This document shows, in pieces, positions 3,131-23,449 of a stretch of 32,000 nucleotides of DNA (positions within the stretch are counted from its first letter, which is position 1; each line of letters begins with the position of its first letter). Source of the DNA: Methanothermobacter marburgensis str. Marburg (lineage in GTDB: Archaea; Methanobacteriota; Methanobacteria; Methanobacteriales; Methanothermobacteraceae); the NCBI RefSeq assembly GCF_000145295.1, contig NC_014408.1, positions 330,001-362,000 on the forward strand, written 5' to 3'. The translations under genes were made by a program, and so were the position numbers. The notes under the pieces were generated by a model. That model ran no database searches, was not told the origin of the DNA, and saw only the letters and a list, made by a program, of their open reading frames with translations.

Positions 3131-5527
3131 TTATTCCGCAAGACCCCTCCTGAAGTGTGATGCCGTTACCCCTGAGGGACCTTCCATTACAATGCGCTCC
3201 TTGATATCCGGGATCCTTTCGGGTGATTCAAGGGCACTCACATATGATTCAACAAGTAACCCGGTCCTCCTGGGGGATTGAATACGGCAGTCAATGGAGA
3301 AGTTCCTGAAGCCAGCGTCAAGAAGGGAGGGTAAAAAGTCAATGAGGCAGGTCTCCCTTGAATTCATGATTACCGTTTCACAGCCAAGGAGCTGATTTAT
3401 GGGAAATACAGCGCCCTTACTGTCCATGATCCCCCACCTGGAATCGGCGGATGTATCGAAGTCCGGCGGTGCGAGTTTCCAGAGGTTGTCCCGGGTCACC
3501 ATTGCGGTGAGGTTTCCATGGACGATGATTTCAGAGGGGACCTGAATCCTCTGAAGGTCCTGCCAGGATAGTTCAGGTGAGAGGGTCAGTAGGTTGAACT
3601 TGCCTGATAGGAGGGCCGCTGAGCTGGTGTTGAAAATGTTGAGGGCTGGTGATCCATACACCTTCACATCACAGTTTATCAGGTCAGGGATACCGTAACC
3701 ACCCACCATGAGGTCCATGGAGAGGTCCCCTTCAATTTCAAGAAGCCTTTCAAGGAGCCAGTCATGGGTTATGTCAGGCCACTTCCATACAGTTTCAGCA
3801 CCGTATCTGGATGAAACATCAGAGGCCCTCTCCAGAACACTGATGACGTCGTCACCGTCACAGCTTCTGAAGTCACCATGAACCTGGGGTTCCAGGTAAA
3901 CCCTACCTGCACCGGCCCTGAGGGCGGATTTCATTGCCTTGAGGTCCTCAACATAGACTGATATACAGGGGTCCTCTGGAAGTCTCATGGCAGGGTGATC
4001 AGATGCAGGTTTGGGATTGTGATGGTGGGGTCTTCTCTCTCTGAGTATCCTTCTTTCGACCCTCATCAGAAGTTCCCTTCTGAGGGCGTTGAGGCGGCTG
4101 ATGGGGTAGAAGAGCCCTCCGGGGTACCTGAATTCGGTTAAGGTAAGTCTGAATGGTTTATTCCCTGCCCTCAGCAGATGGTCCTTTATTGTGTCCTCCT
4201 GGAGGGGTCTTTTGAGGGCCCTCTCAAACTGTGTTTCAACAGATTCCCTGAGCCTCAACCCATTCATCATCCATTCTGCGGTTAGATCCACCATTCCATC
4301 TTTATCTGCACTGAATTTCAGTTCAATATCCCAGCACCTTCCTGGAGATGATCTTCTGAGTTTTTCAGTGAATTTCTGAAGGCTCTTCCTCCCTGTAAGG
4401 TAAACCAGAGTACCCTCTTTTACAGGTCCTGAAGGAACTGAGAGTAATCTGCCATGGTATCTATGGTCATGGACATACATTCCTTTACCTGTTCCCTGGA
4501 AGAAGAGTCCATCACCGGGTTCTGGCTTTATACGGGAGGTTATCCTTATATGGGCCCTGCCACCTGCGTACCTTTCAACATAGCCCACCGGGAGGCCCCT
4601 GTCACCGGGGTATTCCCGTCCCATGAAGTCCTCCCTGAAGAGGTGCCCTCCTGTGAGTGTCCTGTTGAAGGTAAGTCTTAGCTTCTCAAACTCCTCCTGT
4701 GATGGATTCCACACTCCCATCTTTATTTCATCAAGGGCCCTTCTGTAGACGCTTACGGTGGTGGCAACGTATTCAGGGGACCTCATCCGTCCCTCTATCT
4801 TCAGGGATCGGACTCCGGCTTCAACCAGTTCCTTGAGGTGCATGTAGGCTGAAATGTCCCTTGTGGATAGGAGGTACTCCTCCCTTAGTGGCACCCTCCT
4901 CTTTGAGGGTTTTAACTGAACGAGTTCATACCTTTTTCTACATGGCTGGGCGCACCGGCCCCTGTTACCGCTTCTACCACCTATAAATGAGGATAGAAGG
5001 CACTGGCCAGAATAACTGTAGCATAGGGCTCCATGTATGAAAACCTCAAGCTCCACGTCAGATTCAGCCGCCAGGGCCCTGACCTCATCAATGGAGAGCT
5101 CCCTTGCAGGTATAACCCTCCTAAGGCCCATCTTCTCAGCCCATCTTATCCCCGCCCTGTTGTGTATGGTCATCTGGGTTGAGGCATGGAATGGGAGGTC
5201 AAGGGATAACTCATCCCTCAGAACAAGGAGTGCGGGGTCCTGTATGATCACAGCGTCCACACCTGCACTGGAGAGTTCCTGGAGGTATTCAGCAACATCT
5301 GAAAGTTCAGAGTCCCTTATGAGGGTATTTACAGTTACATACACATTTCTGTCATGCAGGTGGGCGTATTCCACTGCCTCCCGAATTTCCTGCAGGCTGA
5401 AGTTCTCTGCATAGTGCCGTGCACCGAAGTCCTTCCCTGAGAGGTAGACTGAATCGGCCCCTGCATTGATGGCGACCCTGAAGGAGTCAGGTGAACCTGC
5501 AGGCGCAAGGAGTTCCGGGATTTCCAA
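3131..5527 (-). CDS. Peptidase-U32-family protein, double module, N-module with Fe-S cysteine motif (RlhA/TrhP/UbiU-UbiV-like putative anaerobic hydroxylase)
   Basis: 798 aa. 'EVFIHGALCYSYSGQCLLSS' matches the U32 signature ExFxxGALCxxxxGxCxLS, and 'GRCAQPCR' follows, giving CX6CX15CX3C. A second U32-like module starts near aa 520 ('ISVYVEDLKAMKSALRAGAGRVYLEP') and lacks these Cys. TTG start at 5527 with 'GGAGGT' about 9 nt upstream. Confidence 0.85.
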   Translation of the reverse strand: MEIPELLAPAGSPDSFRVAINAGADSVYLSGKDFGARHYAENFSLQEIREAVEYAHLHDRNVYVTVNTLIRDSELSDVAEYLQELSSAGVDAVIIQDPALLVLRDELSLDLPFHASTQMTIHNRAGIRWAEKMGLRRVIPARELSIDEVRALAAESDVELEVFIHGALCYSYSGQCLLSSFIGGRSGNRGRCAQPCRKRYELVQLKPSKRRVPLREEYLLSTRDISAYMHLKELVEAGVRSLKIEGRMRSPEYVATTVSVYRRALDEIKMGVWNPSQEEFEKLRLTFNRTLTGGHLFREDFMGREYPGDRGLPVGYVERYAGGRAHIRITSRIKPEPGDGLFFQGTGKGMYVHDHRYHGRLLSVPSGPVKEGTLVYLTGRKSLQKFTEKLRRSSPGRCWDIELKFSADKDGMVDLTAEWMMNGLRLRESVETQFERALKRPLQEDTIKDHLLRAGNKPFRLTLTEFRYPGGLFYPISRLNALRRELLMRVERRILRERRPHHHNPKPASDHPAMRLPEDPCISVYVEDLKAMKSALRAGAGRVYLEPQVHGDFRSCDGDDVISVLERASDVSSRYGAETVWKWPDITHDWLLERLLEIEGDLSMDLMVGGYGIPDLINCDVKVYGSPALNIFNTSSAALLSGKFNLLTLSPELSWQDLQRIQVPSEIIVHGNLTAMVTRDNLWKLAPPDFDTSADSRWGIMDSKGAVFPINQLLGCETVIMNSRETCLIDFLPSLLDAGFRNFSIDCRIQSPRRTGLLVESYVSALESPERIPDIKERIVMEGPSGVTASHFRRGLAE

Positions 5528-5556: not shown

Positions 5557-6882
5557 TTATTTTATCTCCTCAAGGACCTCGGTAACTATCTTGAGGAATT
5601 TCTGTACAAGGGCCCTGTTCTTCTCCTCACTGGCCCTGACACGGTCCTCTTCAATTTTTCTGTGAATCGCAATTGCATATATATCTGCAAGGCGCTCCAT
5701 TACCTCAAGATCCCTTTCATCGTAGTCCCCATCCTTCCCTGAAACTGCGAGTATTCCCACAAGTTCATCGTTGAGTAGCGCGGGGCATGCCAGAAAGTTC
5801 TTTATTTCAATGTGGCCCTCAGGGACCCCCGTGGATTCAGGGTGCGAGGAGGGGTCATTTACGAGGACCGGTTCCCTTTTCCTGAGCACAAGGTTCCAGA
5901 GACCACCCATTTCAGTGGATTCGGCGTCCGGATGACATTCCTTCCCCACCTCCTCTGAGGGGAAGTAATTCCTCAGGCTGCCGTCTGACTCAAAGAAGCC
6001 AGCCATGCAGTATCTGCTGCCTGTCAGTTTTTTCGCCCTTTCAATTATGCTCGCAGATATCTCCTCGAGTGAAGGGGGGGGTAGGAGTTTCTTTGATATC
6101 TCTGCAAGGCTTTTGTTTATGGCAGTCTCCCTTTCAAGCGCCCTTCTTGCAAGTTCCTTTTCGGTGACATCCCTGTGGACACCCACAACCCCATTTATAT
6201 TGCCCTCAAAGTCACGGAGCGGTGATAGGGTTGTTTCAAAATGAAATTTACCCTTGGGCTTCCAGACCCACTCATAGCTAACGGTTTCCCCCCTGAGCGC
6301 CCTTTCAATCATTTCGCTGTGAATCCCGTCACCGAAGACCTCGCTAACCTTTTTTCCCTGAACTTCATCTGCATCAAGGCCGTATTCTGCAAGCGGCCCT
6401 GGTGATATCATGGTTAGGCTTTCATCACTGTCGGCAGTGAACAGTATATCCCTTATTGATGAGATTATGGCCCTGAAGAGTTCATCGTTCTCTGCAAGCC
6501 TCCTCTCCAGCTGGTGTTTGTGGAGTGCGACCTCTATGACGCTGTGGAGTTCCCGGTCCTCAAAGGGTTTTATTATGTATCCAAAGGGCCCTGTTATCTT
6601 GGCCCTTTTGAGGGTTTCCTCGTCTGAATAGGCGGTTATATAGATTATTGGAACCTTCATTCTTTTGGTTATCTCCCCGGCAGCCTCTATACCATCCATT
6701 TCCCCCTTGAGGACAATATCCATCAGTATGATGTCTGGCCTTGTTTTTTCAGCCATCTCAACGGCTTTTTCACCGGTGGAAACTGTGGCTGTAACCTGGT
6801 AACCCAGGGATTCAAGGCGCTGGCTTATATCAATGGCAACTATGCTCTCATCCTCAACCACCATGACCTTGGCTTTTGACAT
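5557..6882 (-). CDS. Response regulator: receiver (REC) + PAS + GAF domains, no recognisable output domain
   Basis: REC: 'VMVVEDE', phospho-acceptor context 'IILMDIVL', 'IIKPF'. The central segment is PAS-like ('[26 protein letters not shown]'). The C-terminal segment is GAF-like ('[33 protein letters not shown]'). SD 'GAGGTGG' lies 5 nt before the ATG. Confidence 0.8.
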
Positions 6883-17821: not shown

Positions 17822-18217
17822 AAATACTTTGCAGTGTGATGGGTTTCACCTGACCGGAGAGCGGTGTTCATGCAATCCATTAATCCTACACAGCACTGAC
17901 TTCGTTATAGGATACTATTGCGAACATAGGGTCCGCATTAAAGTCATTTCATGAAATTCCTGGGGCTTCTGGACAGGTCTGTAGAATCAAGCAAGAAATA
18001 AATCTGATATCACACCAGAAAGACGATGGATACGGTTCCCAGATGAAACCCGCAATTTTTTATAGAATGGATGGAAATATAGTAATTGTTATTATCTAGG
18101 GGGTGATTGCAGAATCTGGCACCTTTTTAGTGGTTTAGGGAATTTGGATGCATTCTATCAAATCAGACATGATATCGTTTCTGGATTCTTTTCACAATTA
18201 AAGGGGAGGTTAACGGT

Positions 18218-19606: not shown

Positions 19607-21001
19607 TCATCTTAATTTTTTTTTGAAGGGAATTTTAGGCTCGATGTATGTCCTATACAGTGTTTCAAGGAATACGCGTATCATGTAACTATGCCTCAGG
19701 AGATAGGAGGGCCTTGAGTAGAACCTGAGGTACGCCTTCACAAGCTTTTTCTGGATGAGTTCACGGCTCAGACCAAGCTTCTCGTATTTGATAACGGGCT
19801 TTATGACGGTGTAATTTTCCCAGTCATCTTCGATGAGTCCCTGCCTCCTGAGCTCCGCGTAGAGGGGGGTTCCCGGGAATGGTGTAAGTATGGAGTACTG
19901 GCTGTAGTCCGGGTCAAGTTTTATCGAAAAGTCTATGGTCCGGTCCATCTCTGAGGGTTTCTCACCTGGATACCCGAGGATGAAGGAGGTTATTACCTCC
20001 ACCCCAGCCTTCCTGGCAGCCCTCACAGCATCTTCAGCCTGCTTAACAGTTATGCCCTTCTTCATCATATCAAGGACGCGCTGACACCCGGATTCAACAC
20101 CATAATATATTGTTTTCATCCCCGCGGCCCTGAGGTCCCTGAGAAGGGATTCCTGGACCATGTCCACCCTTGAGGATGTGACAAAACTCACATCAATGTT
20201 TCTCCTCTGGATCTCCTCAGCGATCTCCCTGGCCCGGCGCCGGTGGAGCATGAAGGTGTCGTCGAGGAATGCTATATCATGGAGGCCGTAGACCTCCACG
20301 AGCTCCTCAACCTCATCGACAACGTTCTCAGGGCTCCTGAACCTGAACTTCTTACCCATTATGAGGGATGATGAGCAGTACCTGCAGGGGTAGACACAGC
20401 CACGGCTGGTTATCATTCCACCGGCATCCTGACTGGAGGTTTCATAATCCCTGAATGGTACAAGGTGCCTCGCAGGGAAGGGTATCTCATCAAGGTCCTC
20501 TATGAGGGGCCGGGCCCTGTTTGTCCGTATCCTGTCACCCTCACGGTAGGTGATGCCTGCAACATCATCAAGGGACCCGGGGCCTCCCTTTTCATAGGTC
20601 TCTGCAAGATCAATGATGGTGGCCTCTCCCTCACCCATGACAACAACATCAAGGTCCCTGCATTCCTGGAGTGTATCCACAGGGAGAAATGTGGGGTGTG
20701 GGCCCCCTATAACCGTCAGGACGTCAGGTAATCGATTTTTTATCGCCCTTATGTACTCAAGGGATGTTCTTATTGTTGCAGTGGTTGCTGTTATCCCCAC
20801 AATGAGGGGGTTAATTCCTTCAACTATTCTGGCAACCCCTTCAGCTCCCATTCTCCGGAGATCATCATCGATTATCTGAACAGTGAAGGATGCCCTTTCA
20901 AGGGCAGCTCCAAGGTACATCAGATTGAGGGGTGGCAGAACAAAGCCCAGTTTATTCTTAACCGCTGTCCTGTCCTCGGGGTTTATGAGTACAACGTCCA
21001 A
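19607..21001 (-). CDS. Class-B (B12-binding-domain) radical SAM enzyme
   Basis: N-terminal cobalamin-domain-like Rossmann segment ('[32 protein letters not shown]'). Radical SAM 'GCVYPCRYC'. The TTG start directly follows the TAA of the upstream gene, with 'GGTGGTG' just upstream. Confidence 0.9.
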
Positions 21002-22366
21002 TTAAACACCACCGGTTTGTTTTTCTCCAGAAATTCTTCGCCATTCTCCAATGTTGTTCACACAGCCAGGGTCCGGCGAATGGATGTCCCCCAGATAGGA
21101 GAGGGCACGTGCCCTGCAGCCGCCACAGATGTATCTGGATTTGCATGATCCGCAGTGGTCTGAGAGTTTATCCCTATCCCTGAGGTTCCTTAGTACCCTG
21201 CTGGTCTTCCATAACTCTTCAAAGTCATCTTCTAGGATGTTGCCCACACAGAGGTCATCCAGGTGCGGGAAGAATACGCAGGGATAGATGTCGCCGTCCG
21301 GTTCGATGCTCAGGTAGAATCTTCCAGCGCCACATCCACCTATAAATTCGGCAAGATGGAGGGTCTCATCTGTGTATTCGGGGTTATAGAAGTGGGTGGG
21401 TATCATCCTCTTATCCTTGCTGAGGCCTGCTGCGATGGGTGCGAACTGTGGTGCTGTTGAGAGGACCTGGATTTTACCATGGAGGTTGCTGTGGTAGGCT
21501 TCACAGAGGACCCTGTACCTTTCCGGGGGGCCTATGTCCAGTTCAGGGTTCTCTTTTCCCCGACCCGCGGGGATGAAATTGTAGAGCATGAACCAGTCTG
21601 CGCCCAGCTCATGGAAGAATTCAGCCATTTCAGAAAGGTGCATGAAGTTCTCTGAGGTCACGGTGGTTGCAACCTCCACAAAGATGTCATACTCTGAGAA
21701 GTTTTTAACGGCCTCACATGCCCTCTCCCATGAGCCATCAACACCCCGGAATCTGTCATGGACCTCTGGCTTCATGGAATCGATACTTATCTGTACAAAC
21801 TGCAGGCCCGCATCGACGAATTTCCTGCAGACGTCCCTGTCCCTGAAGATGTACCCATTGGTTGCCATGGCGGTGTACATGCCGTTCTCATGGGACCTGG
21901 ATATGTAGTCCATTATGGCGGGGTGCATGCTTGGCTCTCCACCTGAAAGGGCAAGGGATGTTACGCCTGCATCTGTAAGTATGTCTATGACCCTGAGGCC
22001 CTCCTGGGCTTCCAGTTCATGTGGCCTCTGACTGTTGTATTCGTAGCAGTGTTTGCATTTGAGGTTGCAACGCCCTGTAATGTTCCATACCACCTGGAAG
22101 GGGGCTCCGGGTATGAATGGTCTGTTAACACCGAATAACCCGATCCCCTTGAGGACGCTGATGAGGCCCCTCATCCAGTGCGGATCATGCATCTGTTCCC
22201 TCAAATCCTCTTCATTCACGCCAAAGGCATCTGCTCCACTGCTCAATATGAGGCCAATGATGCTGGATAGTAGCCTGCACTCGAAGCAGCATTCTTCGTC
22301 ATGGAGGTAGTGTCTAAGGGCGTTCTCTATCCTTGGAGATCCATCCCTCCGGCACTCCCCCATCAT
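21002..22366 (-). CDS. Radical SAM enzyme with SPASM/twitch-type C-terminal auxiliary-cluster domain and about 90-aa N-terminal extension
   Basis: 'GRCNLKCKHCY' (CX3CX2C). C-terminal 'GGCGAGRFYLSIEPDGDIYPC' and 'CGSCKSRYICGGC'. N-terminal 'CCFEC'. Confidence 0.9.
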   Translation of the reverse strand: MMGECRRDGSPRIENALRHYLHDEECCFECRLLSSIIGLILSSGADAFGVNEEDLREQMHDPHWMRGLISVLKGIGLFGVNRPFIPGAPFQVVWNITGRCNLKCKHCYEYNSQRPHELEAQEGLRVIDILTDAGVTSLALSGGEPSMHPAIMDYISRSHENGMYTAMATNGYIFRDRDVCRKFVDAGLQFVQISIDSMKPEVHDRFRGVDGSWERACEAVKNFSEYDIFVEVATTVTSENFMHLSEMAEFFHELGADWFMLYNFIPAGRGKENPELDIGPPERYRVLCEAYHSNLHGKIQVLSTAPQFAPIAAGLSKDKRMIPTHFYNPEYTDETLHLAEFIGGCGAGRFYLSIEPDGDIYPCVFFPHLDDLCVGNILEDDFEELWKTSRVLRNLRDRDKLSDHCGSCKSRYICGGCRARALSYLGDIHSPDPGCVNNIGEWRRISGEKQTGGV

Positions 22367-22448
22367 ATGTTTCAGAAGAACCCTTGAAGCGGGGTTTTCA
22401 GAGACCCTTCTGAATGTGCCTATAAGGTCCCTGAGGTCTCGTCTGGAA

Positions 22449-23033
22449 CTATTCCTTAATCATACCACCTCCTTCTATACCCCTCCATAATATGTCTATG
22501 AAACTCTCCGCTGCTGGTGTTTCATGTCCGCGGAAGTGTGAACTGAGGCTTGCATGGGAGATGTAACTGATTATCATCTCTGCAGCGGTCCCCGGATCCA
22601 CGACCCTTATGGAGCCCTCACTGATCTTATCCCTGAGATAATGCTCAATTGAATCGTATATCAATCTGGCAGTTGAATCATGGATTTCCCACCCATCAAA
22701 ACCGTGTTCTTCAAGTTCCCTTTCAACCATCATCAAAAAGAGAAGGTCGATCTTCTCCTGGACCATGACCATGATCAGTTTCTGGATGACTTCCTTCAGC
22801 ACATCACGCGGGTCACCATCTCTCCTGAGGACTTCAAGGACCCCCGATATCCTTTCGCTGCTCTCATCCATTATCCTTTTGAGAAGGTTTTTCTTGGATC
22901 CAAATTTTCTGAAGACCGTTACTTCACTTACACCGGCCCGGGATGCAATTTCACGGGTTGTTGTACCCCTGTATCCCCTTTTTATGAAAAGTTCCCTTGC
23001 GGCTTCGGTTATCCTCTTCTCTGTGGAGACCAT
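22449..23033 (-). CDS. TetR-family transcriptional regulator
   Basis: HTH 'ELFIKRGYRGTTTREIASRAGVSEVTVFRKFGSKKNLL'. The ORF track starts at 23063, but that ATG lies upstream of the TSS predicted from the TATA at 23076-23086, so I prefer Met at 23033 (MVSTEKRI). Confidence 0.8.
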   Translation of the reverse strand: MVSTEKRITEAARELFIKRGYRGTTTREIASRAGVSEVTVFRKFGSKKNLLKRIMDESSERISGVLEVLRRDGDPRDVLKEVIQKLIMVMVQEKIDLLFLMMVERELEEHGFDGWEIHDSTARLIYDSIEHYLRDKISEGSIRVVDPGTAAEMIISYISHASLSSHFRGHETPAAESFIDILWRGIEGGGMIKE

Positions 23034-23075
23034 GATACCACTTATGTAAGTACTTACTAACATTATGGGGTTAGT

Positions 23076-23086
23076 GTTATATAAAC
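23076..23086. promoter_or_regulatory. Near-palindromic TATA box, possibly bidirectional (TetR operon / 113-aa gene)
   Basis: 'GTTATATAAAC' is centred 27 nt before ATG 23108 on the plus strand (leaderless geometry). On the minus strand it lies about 48 nt before ATG 23033. Confidence 0.4.
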
Positions 23087-23107
23087 ATTATCGCCACAGA
23101 TAGTACC

Positions 23108-23449
23108 ATGAGAATAACCGAGAAGGATGTTATTGAATCACTGGAACTCTTCACAAGGGTACCATCATTCCTACTAAGACGCTGGGTTCGGAAAGAGATA
23201 AACCTGGCATCAAAATTCAGATCACAGATAATAGATGGCTATTCACAGCTTTCAGAATATGACAGGGAGAGGTTGAGGGCCATACTTGAAATGGATGTCT
23301 CTGATATCCAGGATATACTTGGGGAAGCCCACAGGAAAACAGGAAAAGAGCAGCTAAAAATACTTTCAGATCCATCAAGCAGGAAATTCATAGAGATTAA
23401 CCTGGAAGAGACCAGGAATCTCATCTCTAATGAAAAAAGGGACAGTTAA
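23108..23449 (+). CDS. Hypothetical soluble protein (113 aa)
   Basis: ORF with leaderless-type promoter geometry. Helical and charged, with no motif recognised. Its stop overlaps the rfbB stop convergently. Confidence 0.5.
   Translation: MRITEKDVIESLELFTRVPSFLLRRWVRKEINLASKFRSQIIDGYSQLSEYDRERLRAILEMDVSDIQDILGEAHRKTGKEQLKILSDPSSRKFIEINLEETRNLISNEKRDS

Follow-up and report, generated by a model that had tools for sequence, protein, structure and literature searches.

A tetR gene and a putative operator precede the gms-gmm tetraether lipid genes of Methanothermobacter marburgensis

Glycerol monoalkyl glycerol tetraethers (GMGTs) and their methylated forms are biomarkers of environment and palaeoclimate, and a stiffening of membranes under stress is attributed to them. 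The GMGT synthase (Gms) was identified by two papers in 2024 (Li et al., 2024, PMC11186832; Garcia et al., 2024, PMC11214058), and the second of these also identified Gmm, the B12-binding radical S-adenosylmethionine (SAM) enzyme that acts as GMGT methylase. The gms gene clusters with gmm in Methanothermobacter marburgensis and M. thermautotrophicus, both of which produce methylated GMGTs (Garcia et al., 2024, PMC11214058). We analyzed a stretch of 32,000 nucleotides from M. marburgensis str. Marburg (contig NC_014408.1, positions 330,001 to 362,000 of the forward strand), hereafter called the window, the coordinates of which are used throughout. It carries three minus-strand genes, tetR, gms, and gmm, which very probably form an operon for the tailoring of tetraether membrane lipids, with Gms as cross-linking enzyme, Gmm as methylase and TetR in presumed control of both.

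Gms belongs to the radical SAM/SPASM enzymes, is related to AhbD and carries at its N-terminus a domain of ~100 amino acids (aa) annotated as COG4001 (Garcia et al., 2024; Li et al., 2024). Its radical SAM (RS) cluster cleaves SAM; after hydrogen abstraction at a biphytanyl carbon, a C(sp3)-C(sp3) bridge forms, probably with the help of an auxiliary cluster (Li et al., 2024, PMC11186832). The Gms of Methanothermococcus okinawensis (AEH06837.1) was characterized in vitro and forms the 100% row in the source data of that study. Gmm consumes two SAM, one in loading methyl-cobalamin and the other in making the substrate radical, and the Gms product is preferred over the glycerol dialkyl glycerol tetraether (GDGT) GDGT-0 (PMC13459092). 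Homologues of Gmm have diverged into GDGT methylases (Cgm and Pgm) and a desaturase (Ted).

Identity of the gms-gmm pair

The gms gene as annotated (21002-22366, minus strand) encodes 454 aa from its first ATG. The protein was found to match the Pfam families Radical_SAM (8.5e-27) and SPASM (6.3e-12), and E-values across the three proteins ranged from 1e-12 to 1e-32. Residues 2-454 are identical to ADL57959.1 of M. marburgensis Marburg (453/453 identities by BLASTP, 100%), and the protein is also 100% identical to that of Methanothermobacter sp. KEPCO 2. The preliminary description of the locus, made from the sequence alone, had proposed a comparison with characterized enzymes; for the SPASM protein this is provided by the source data of Li et al. 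(2024, PMC11186832), where ADL57959.1 has 40.32% identity to M. okinawensis Gms (E = 5e-100). The sequence contains the motifs GRCNLKCKHCY, CGAGRFYLSIEPDGDIYPC, CGSCKSRYICGGC, and CCFEC. The radical SAM motif CX3CX2C (C100-X3-C104-X2-C107) was invariant in 45 homologues, and seven Cys of the SPASM domain (C345, C363, C405, C408, C414, C417, and C435) were invariant as well. Full-length identity was 45-56% to homologues in Methanobacteriales, Thermoprotei, Bathyarchaeia, Thor- and Odinarchaeota.

An AlphaFold model of Gms (predicted template modelling score, pTM, 0.84) had six N-terminal helices ahead of an RS barrel and also contained a bridging region, which includes a β-hairpin, and the SPASM domain. 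This agrees with the architecture described by Li et al. (2024, PMC11186832). The top match of the model among solved structures was SuiB, which is also the template chosen in that study, and a sequence search of the PDB returned no solved structure of Gms or Gmm.

The protein shares with the known Gms enzymes (M. okinawensis METOK_RS04425/AEH06837.1, Pyrococcus furiosus PF0647, and Thermococcus guaymasensis X802_RS00105) the CX3CX2C motif, the seven-Cys SPASM domain, a core resembling AhbD and, at the N-terminus, a helical domain of ~100-120 aa for lipid binding, and its host species makes GMGT. It differs from them in that the full N-terminal domain here lacks a canonical start codon (TTA in place of TTG), and in that gms is preceded by tetR, the 3' end of which contains the gms Shine-Dalgarno sequence. 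The nearest curated NCBIfam models were TIGR04545 (2.6e-60) and TIGR04055 (1.8e-61), over residues 92-437. The AhbD/NirJ models align to this core only (residues ~92-437) and below their cutoffs, with 204.6 bits against 500 for TIGR04545, 208.5 against 500 for TIGR04055, and 183.3 against 515 for TIGR04051. The equivalogs AhbD, NirJ, PqqE, BchE, HpnJ, ApyD, and others were rejected as families, all being far under cutoff. Compared to AhbD and NirJ, the enzymes of heme and heme d1, the protein thus differs in its score (~205 bits against 500), in an N-terminal domain that is missing from AhbD, and in substrate, which is a tetrapyrrole for AhbD/NirJ and a lipid for Gms.

The gmm gene (19607-21001, minus strand) starts with TTG and encodes a 464-aa protein with the motif GCVYPCRYC, which Pfam matches, identity to ADL57958.1, and synteny mark as a homologue of the GMGT methylase. 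Pfam placed a B12-binding domain at residues 13-131 (6.8e-27) and a Radical_SAM domain at residues 196-358 (5.1e-32). The protein is identical to ADL57958.1 of M. marburgensis (464/464 identities by BLASTP), an accession adjacent to ADL57959.1. Its likeness to Gmm of T. guaymasensis rests on domains, length, gene neighborhood and species: both have B12-binding and radical SAM domains, measure ~460 aa, adjoin gms, and come from species with mono- to tri-methylated GMGTs. The difference is that orthologues with 80-83% identity to the protein studied here survive without gms, and it may also, or instead, methylate GDGTs in the manner of Cgm and Pgm.

The 82% and 91% clusters of the SPASM and B12 proteins include AAB86251.1 and AAB86250.1, respectively, of M. 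thermautotrophicus ΔH (cluster look-up). In several genomes the public annotation of gms is truncated and carries a wrong name, as in AAB86251.1 (353 aa, "coenzyme PQQ synthesis protein") and QEF95350.1 of strain KEPCO-1 (390 aa). Public names of the B12 gene vary between Mg-protoporphyrin cyclase, 2-hydroxyethylphosphonate methyltransferase, and MiaB.

The TAA stop codon of gms (21004-21002) abuts the TTG start codon of gmm (21001), the junction reading …ACC GGT GGT GTT TAA followed by TTG GAC…. Read directly from the sequence, a Shine-Dalgarno-like GGTGGTG (21007-21013, minus strand) lies within the last gms codons, 5 nt upstream of the TTG. The abutment and the internal Shine-Dalgarno sequence would fit coupled synthesis of Gms and Gmm. 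The corresponding sequence TGGTGGTGTT upstream of the B12 gene start was kept in each of the five Methanothermobacter locus types, also where gms is lacking. We considered GGTGGTG as a gms remnant that would prove a deletion in the gms-less strains and rejected this, as it may be merely a conserved ribosome-binding site. All the primary observations of the preliminary description, that is the three minus-strand genes, their motifs, the TAA/TTG abutment, the GGTGGTG and the 82-nt spacing between tetR and gms, were recovered from open reading frames (ORFs), Pfam searches and the sequence.

Pairwise comparisons to three related lineages gave dN/dS ratios of 0.14-0.24 for TetR, 0.12-0.19 for the SPASM protein, and 0.08-0.11 for the B12 protein; the three genes are therefore real and under purifying selection. 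Synteny was assessed in 80 species-representative loci, none of them from M. marburgensis, M. thermautotrophicus ΔH, Thermococcales or Methanococcales. M. marburgensis and ΔH encode proteins 82-100% identical to the query and did not come up in the genome-collection scan, possibly owing to masking of this region in the collection. A same-strand B12 radical SAM gene directly follows gms in ~30 Methanobacteriaceae loci. The same order was found in Thermoprotei, Nitrososphaerales, Bathyarchaeia, Thermoproteota, and Thorarchaeota, giving ~35 loci in at least six phyla in all. These phyla match those named in the published work on Gms.

Since ADL57959.1 is listed by Li et al. and the clustering of gms with gmm was reported by Garcia et al., the window carries a published Gms homologue together with its published gmm neighbor. 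Judged by sequence identity, the pair is the gms-gmm cluster already known from M. marburgensis, and our analysis is a confirmation rather than a discovery. We base the assignment of both enzymes on their sequence identity to published homologues, on synteny, and on the lipids reported for the species. The earlier proposal that a cross-linking enzyme and a B12-dependent methylase act on tetraether lipid is supported by the identity to a listed Gms homologue and by the reported cluster, while its presentation as a new candidate system does not hold, the pair being in the 2024 literature for this very species.

The N-terminus of Gms and its start codon

The SPASM protein had been credited with an unusual N-terminal extension of about 90 aa. 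The extension is real and corresponds to the lipid-binding domain of Gms, but it measures ~120 aa, as the codons ahead of the annotated ATG are collinear with the family and constrained. In alignments the annotated 454-aa Gms was shorter than its homologues by about 30-40 N-terminal residues. The 82-nt stretch between tetR and gms, formerly taken as a gap, reads in the gms frame as …DLRDLIGTFRRVSENPASRVLLKH followed by MMGEC…, collinear with the first helices of the family. In the AlphaFold model it contains helices H9-21 and H23-31, two of the six N-terminal helices. Since the 24 pre-ATG codons have dN/dS ratios of 0.055-0.098 (dS 0.58-1.0, four lineages), they have evidently been translated. 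The whole in-frame extension (22367-22459, minus strand) comprises 31 codons and covers helices 1-2 of the six-helix domain, starting with TTA at 22459-22457.

No ATG, GTG or TTG was found from the in-frame TGA (22462-22460) to the ATG at 22366. A strong Shine-Dalgarno sequence, GGAGGTG (22466-22472, minus strand), is located inside the 3' end of tetR, 6 nt upstream of the TTA/TTG position. It is kept in the window and in the related loci L081, L091, and L094, and reads GGGGGTG in L001. The start position is TTA in the window (22457-22459), in L081, in L091 and in all Marburg-type assemblies. In the sister allele L094 it is TTG (801-803), from which a 484-aa protein is called that overlaps tetR by 11 nt. 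Through the single A/G difference between TTA and TTG, the Marburg, L081, and L091 lineages lack the only canonical start codon of full-length Gms. The Gms of M. marburgensis is presumably active, since the species is a reported producer of methylated GMGTs.

Two fusion alleles were observed. In the 680-aa protein WP_432703743.1 of M. thermautotrophicus a full TetR is fused in frame to Gms (…GGGMIK-VKDLIGTFRRV…), and in the 505-aa protein BAZ99767.1 of Methanothermobacter sp. EMTCatA1 residues 1-34 of TetR are joined to a Gms helix, most of TetR being deleted. The pre-ATG helices of Gms, the TTG/TTA difference and the TetR-Gms fusion alleles appear to be unreported. Locus L017, from a metagenome-assembled genome (MAG), was considered as another example of an absent start codon and rejected; its gms has a 1-nt deletion in the N-terminal helix (5920-5945, GGA-CA-TTC), which is probably an assembly error or a frameshift/pseudogene.

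Three Cys of the N-terminal domain (C5, C27, and C30 in the annotated numbering) were also found to be invariant in the 45 Gms homologues. The published Gms model covers three clusters only, and these N-terminal Cys come on top of the three RS and seven SPASM Cys.

TetR, its putative operator and the variants of the locus

The tetR gene (22449-23033, minus strand; Pfam TetR_N 7.6e-18) probably encodes 194 aa from the ATG at 23033, and the longest ORF extends to 23063. The start at 23033 is more likely because the ATG at 23063 lies only 15 nt past the TATA box and 2 nt before the operator motif described below. TetR orthologues with more than 60% identity were found in Methanothermobacter only, and homologues with 28-44% identity sit upstream of gms in Methanobacteriaceae. 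The nearest ORF upstream of gms encodes a TetR_N protein in 16 of 68 loci, the next class being divergent major facilitator superfamily (MFS) transporters with 8. A same-strand tetR precedes gms in 13 Methanobacteriaceae species loci. Ten of the 11 non-Methanothermobacter trios examined have a tetR-gms gap of -4 to 84 nt, L017 having 134 nt, and in all eleven the gms-gmm gap is -29 to 100 nt.

A putative TetR operator, GTTAGTAAGTACTTAC, is located at 23046-23061 (minus strand) over the expected transcription start and contains a perfect 12-bp palindrome, GTAAGTACTTAC, at 23046-23057. The operator sequence occurs only once in the window, and relatives that carry TetR have conserved it. Invariant in a promoter alignment of seven loci, the archaeal TATA box TTTATATA lies at 23078-23085 (minus strand) and is probably shared with the divergent gene at 23108. 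Similar 16-mers, among them GTAAGTATGTACTTAC, GCAAGTACATACTTAC, and GTAAGTAGGTACTTGC, were found beside TATA-like boxes upstream of every same-strand tetR, although the TetR proteins are only ~30% identical. The pattern GYWAGYANRTACNTNC gave 34 matches in 1.04 Mb of loci compared to 0.5 in shuffled sequence, a count in which only the specificity is independent, since the pattern was built from the same loci. Every match lies between -66 and +6 nt from the called TetR start. A pattern search of the fetched loci found the motif absent from those without TetR. A generic palindrome search upstream of the distant TetRs was not significant by arm length alone, and the shared motif was found by inspection combined with the pattern search. 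The idea of a regulatory link between TetR and the enzyme pair gains support from this conserved putative operator.

The divergent gene (23108-23449, plus strand) encodes a conserved protein of 113 aa, for which neither Pfam nor NCBIfam gave a match. It lies outside the enzyme system and shares the promoter/TATA region with tetR. It is kept in all three states of the Methanothermobacter locus, also where tetR and gms are missing, and it is absent from the Methanobacterium trios, in which TetR and operator remain.

These three states occupy the same slot in an identical context, with dTDP-rhamnose genes on one side and genes for a membrane protein and Yip1 on the other. The trio is present in Marburg, KEPCO, ΔH and relatives, tetR and gmm in sp. 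DP, CaT2, and K4, and gmm alone in M. wolfeii and THM-1. Loci L085 and L086 are of the sp. DP type and L087-L090 of the M. wolfeii type. The latter agree with Garcia et al. (2024, PMC11214058), according to whom gmm is present and gms absent in M. wolfeii. Since the trio is also common to Methanobacterium and to genomes of the M. tenebrarum type, it would be more parsimonious to assume that gms was lost first and tetR later, a point that the conserved GGTGGTG does not settle. This variation between trio, TetR with gmm, and gmm alone appears to be unreported.

Other neighborhoods of gms were also observed. Seven Methanobacteriaceae loci (L006, L018, L023, L032, L034, L037, and L066) have a divergent MFS-type transporter gene upstream of gms and neither TetR nor the operator motif. 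No B12 gene was detected downstream of gms in these loci, of which L023 ends ~90 nt past gms. They represent a second, distinct type of gms neighborhood. In L022 (Thermoprotei), L041 (Methanobrevibacter acididurans), and L042 (a Methanobacteriota MAG) divergent TetR-like genes adjoin gms without the Methanobacteriaceae operator motif, and these may represent an independent association of TetR with gms.

The structural model of TetR (pTM 0.74) has nine helices. Its closest folds included PfmR, FadR, AibR, SaFadR, and FasR, which are acyl-CoA/fatty-acid sensors, and the non-lipid TetRs RutR and DarR scored equally. The fold search was therefore rejected as a pointer to the ligand, as it did not separate the ligand classes. 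With FadR-type TetRs (Sulfolobus acidocaldarius FadR, Bacillus subtilis FadR, and Thermus PfmR) the protein shares the nine-helix fold (TM score 0.68-0.78) and a palindromic operator, putative here, near the promoter and beside lipid-related genes. It differs in having only 19-22% identity to them and in its proposed target, tetraether tailoring, compared to the fatty-acid metabolism controlled by the FadR type.

A regulator is mentioned in the main text of neither of the two 2024 Gms papers (PMC11186832, PMC11214058), and in the collection of papers searched none combines "TetR family", archaea and GDGT. The TetR layer of the gms-gmm cluster and its conserved operator are apparently undescribed.

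Proposed mechanism and alternative explanations

In the mechanism that we propose, the TetR promoter would drive joint transcription of tetR, gms, and gmm. Bound as a dimer to the 16-bp palindromic operator over the transcription start, TetR would repress the operon, and a ligand, probably hydrophobic or amphiphilic, would free TetR from the operator. Gms, a radical SAM/SPASM enzyme with three clusters and, at its N-terminus, a helical domain for lipid binding, would cross-link the tetraether, and Gmm, translationally coupled to gms, would add one to three methyls to the GMGT alkyl chain. A 2025 preprint reports that amphiphiles induce GDGT methylation in other archaea, and it cites Tween-20 as a trigger of methylation in M. 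marburgensis. A hydrophobic or amphiphilic signal for TetR is therefore a reasonable guess. It is possible, and we put it forward tentatively, that TetR serves specifically to repress tetraether cross-linking and methylation in response to a ligand, with an operator resembling GYAAGTA-NN-TACTTAC that is conserved across Methanobacteriaceae, and that it could be the sensor behind detergent- or amphiphile-induced methylation. In the M. marburgensis/thermautotrophicus group the coupling may be tighter, with the gms ribosome-binding site inside tetR, the TTG/TTA start toggle, and, in some strains, the in-frame TetR-Gms fusions.

Several points weigh against the proposed operon for tetraether tailoring. 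The function of Gms in Methanothermobacter would be transferred across 40% identity. Homology would not fix the exact substrate of the B12 enzyme because of the divergence of Gmm homologues to Cgm, Pgm, and Ted, and gmm orthologues persist in strains without gms. In this lineage no canonical start codon is available for the full-length N-terminus of Gms. That TetR controls gms and gmm is suggested by gene packing and operator position only, the structural neighbors of the TetR model include RutR and DarR as well as acyl-CoA sensors, and the operator pattern was counted in the loci from which it was built.

With respect to regulation, TetR may control only itself and/or the divergent 113-aa gene, in which case its proximity to gms-gmm would have no regulatory meaning. 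The operator does lie in the promoter region that tetR and the divergent gene at 23108 share, and gmm goes without any TetR in M. wolfeii-type strains. However, TetR is the commonest upstream neighbor of gms (16/68 loci) and shares its strand, the gap being -4 to 84 nt in 10 of 11 non-Methanothermobacter trios. In L094 the start of gms even overlaps the TetR stop by 11 nt, and the Methanobacterium trios, which lack the 113-aa gene, still keep TetR and operator. We therefore regard control restricted in this way as unlikely. With respect to Gms itself, the missing start codon could mean that the enzyme is crippled in this lineage, starting at ATG 22366 without two of the six helices of its lipid-binding domain. 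This would agree with the absence of a canonical start between TGA 22462-22460 and ATG 22366, where TTA replaces the TTG of the sister allele, and with the persistence of orthologous B12 genes without gms in M. wolfeii and sp. DP/CaT2; Garcia et al. (2024, PMC11214058) suggested that Gmm may methylate unbridged GDGTs in organisms lacking gms. A crippled Gms is nevertheless quite improbable, as dN/dS is 0.12-0.19 for gms and 0.055-0.098 for the pre-ATG codons (peptide …DLIGTFRRVSENPASR…) among lineages that all lack a canonical start, and as M. marburgensis, which has the identical protein, was reported to make methylated GMGTs (PMC11214058).

The preliminary description had also kept open that the pair matures a ribosomally synthesized and post-translationally modified peptide (RiPP) encoded elsewhere, or that it tailors a tetrapyrrole or other cofactor by AhbD/NirJ-like and BchE-like chemistry. 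The top NCBIfam scores did come from NirJ2/AhbD (SPASM protein) and BchE/HpnJ/ApyD (B12 protein), and the structural neighbors are the RiPP maturases SuiB, SkfB, and CteB. On the other hand every equivalog cutoff was missed widely, the N-terminal lipid-binding domain is missing from AhbD, the identical Marburg protein appears in the published list of Gms homologues, and the distribution of the family matches that of Gms. No precursor was found either: between 19400 and 23500 all ORFs of at least 20 aa overlap the large genes and none is free-standing or intergenic, as the preliminary description had stated. Such a RiPP or cofactor function is unsupported and extremely improbable, which leaves tetraether tailoring by Gms and Gmm as the preferred reading of the pair.

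Beyond the enzyme identification of 2024, the locus adds a possible regulatory handle, that is TetR and its operator upstream of gms-gmm in Methanobacteriaceae. The natural variants (trio, TetR with gmm, gmm only, fusions, and TTG/TTA) amount to a natural experiment on the inducing signal and on the action of Gmm on GDGTs without Gms. The interest that remains is modest and concerns the conserved TetR with its operator, the unusual start codon and this natural allelic series.

Elsewhere in the window no further lipid genes were found, and Rfam and tRNA scans of the window returned nothing. A Band_7 (stomatin-like) gene lies between the Yip1 gene and an ion-channel gene in M. thermautotrophicus-type contigs (L081, 8931-9695) and is absent from the window (17822-18217) and from sp. 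DP. A protein with response-regulator, PAS, and GAF domains is encoded at 5557-6882 (minus strand), beside a 798-aa U32 peptidase/DUF3656 protein at 3131-5527 (minus strand). The remaining genes of the window are housekeeping genes, among them those for MCM, an aminoacyl-tRNA synthetase, NMD3, aIF2β, FtsJ, thymidylate kinase, and dTDP-rhamnose synthesis.

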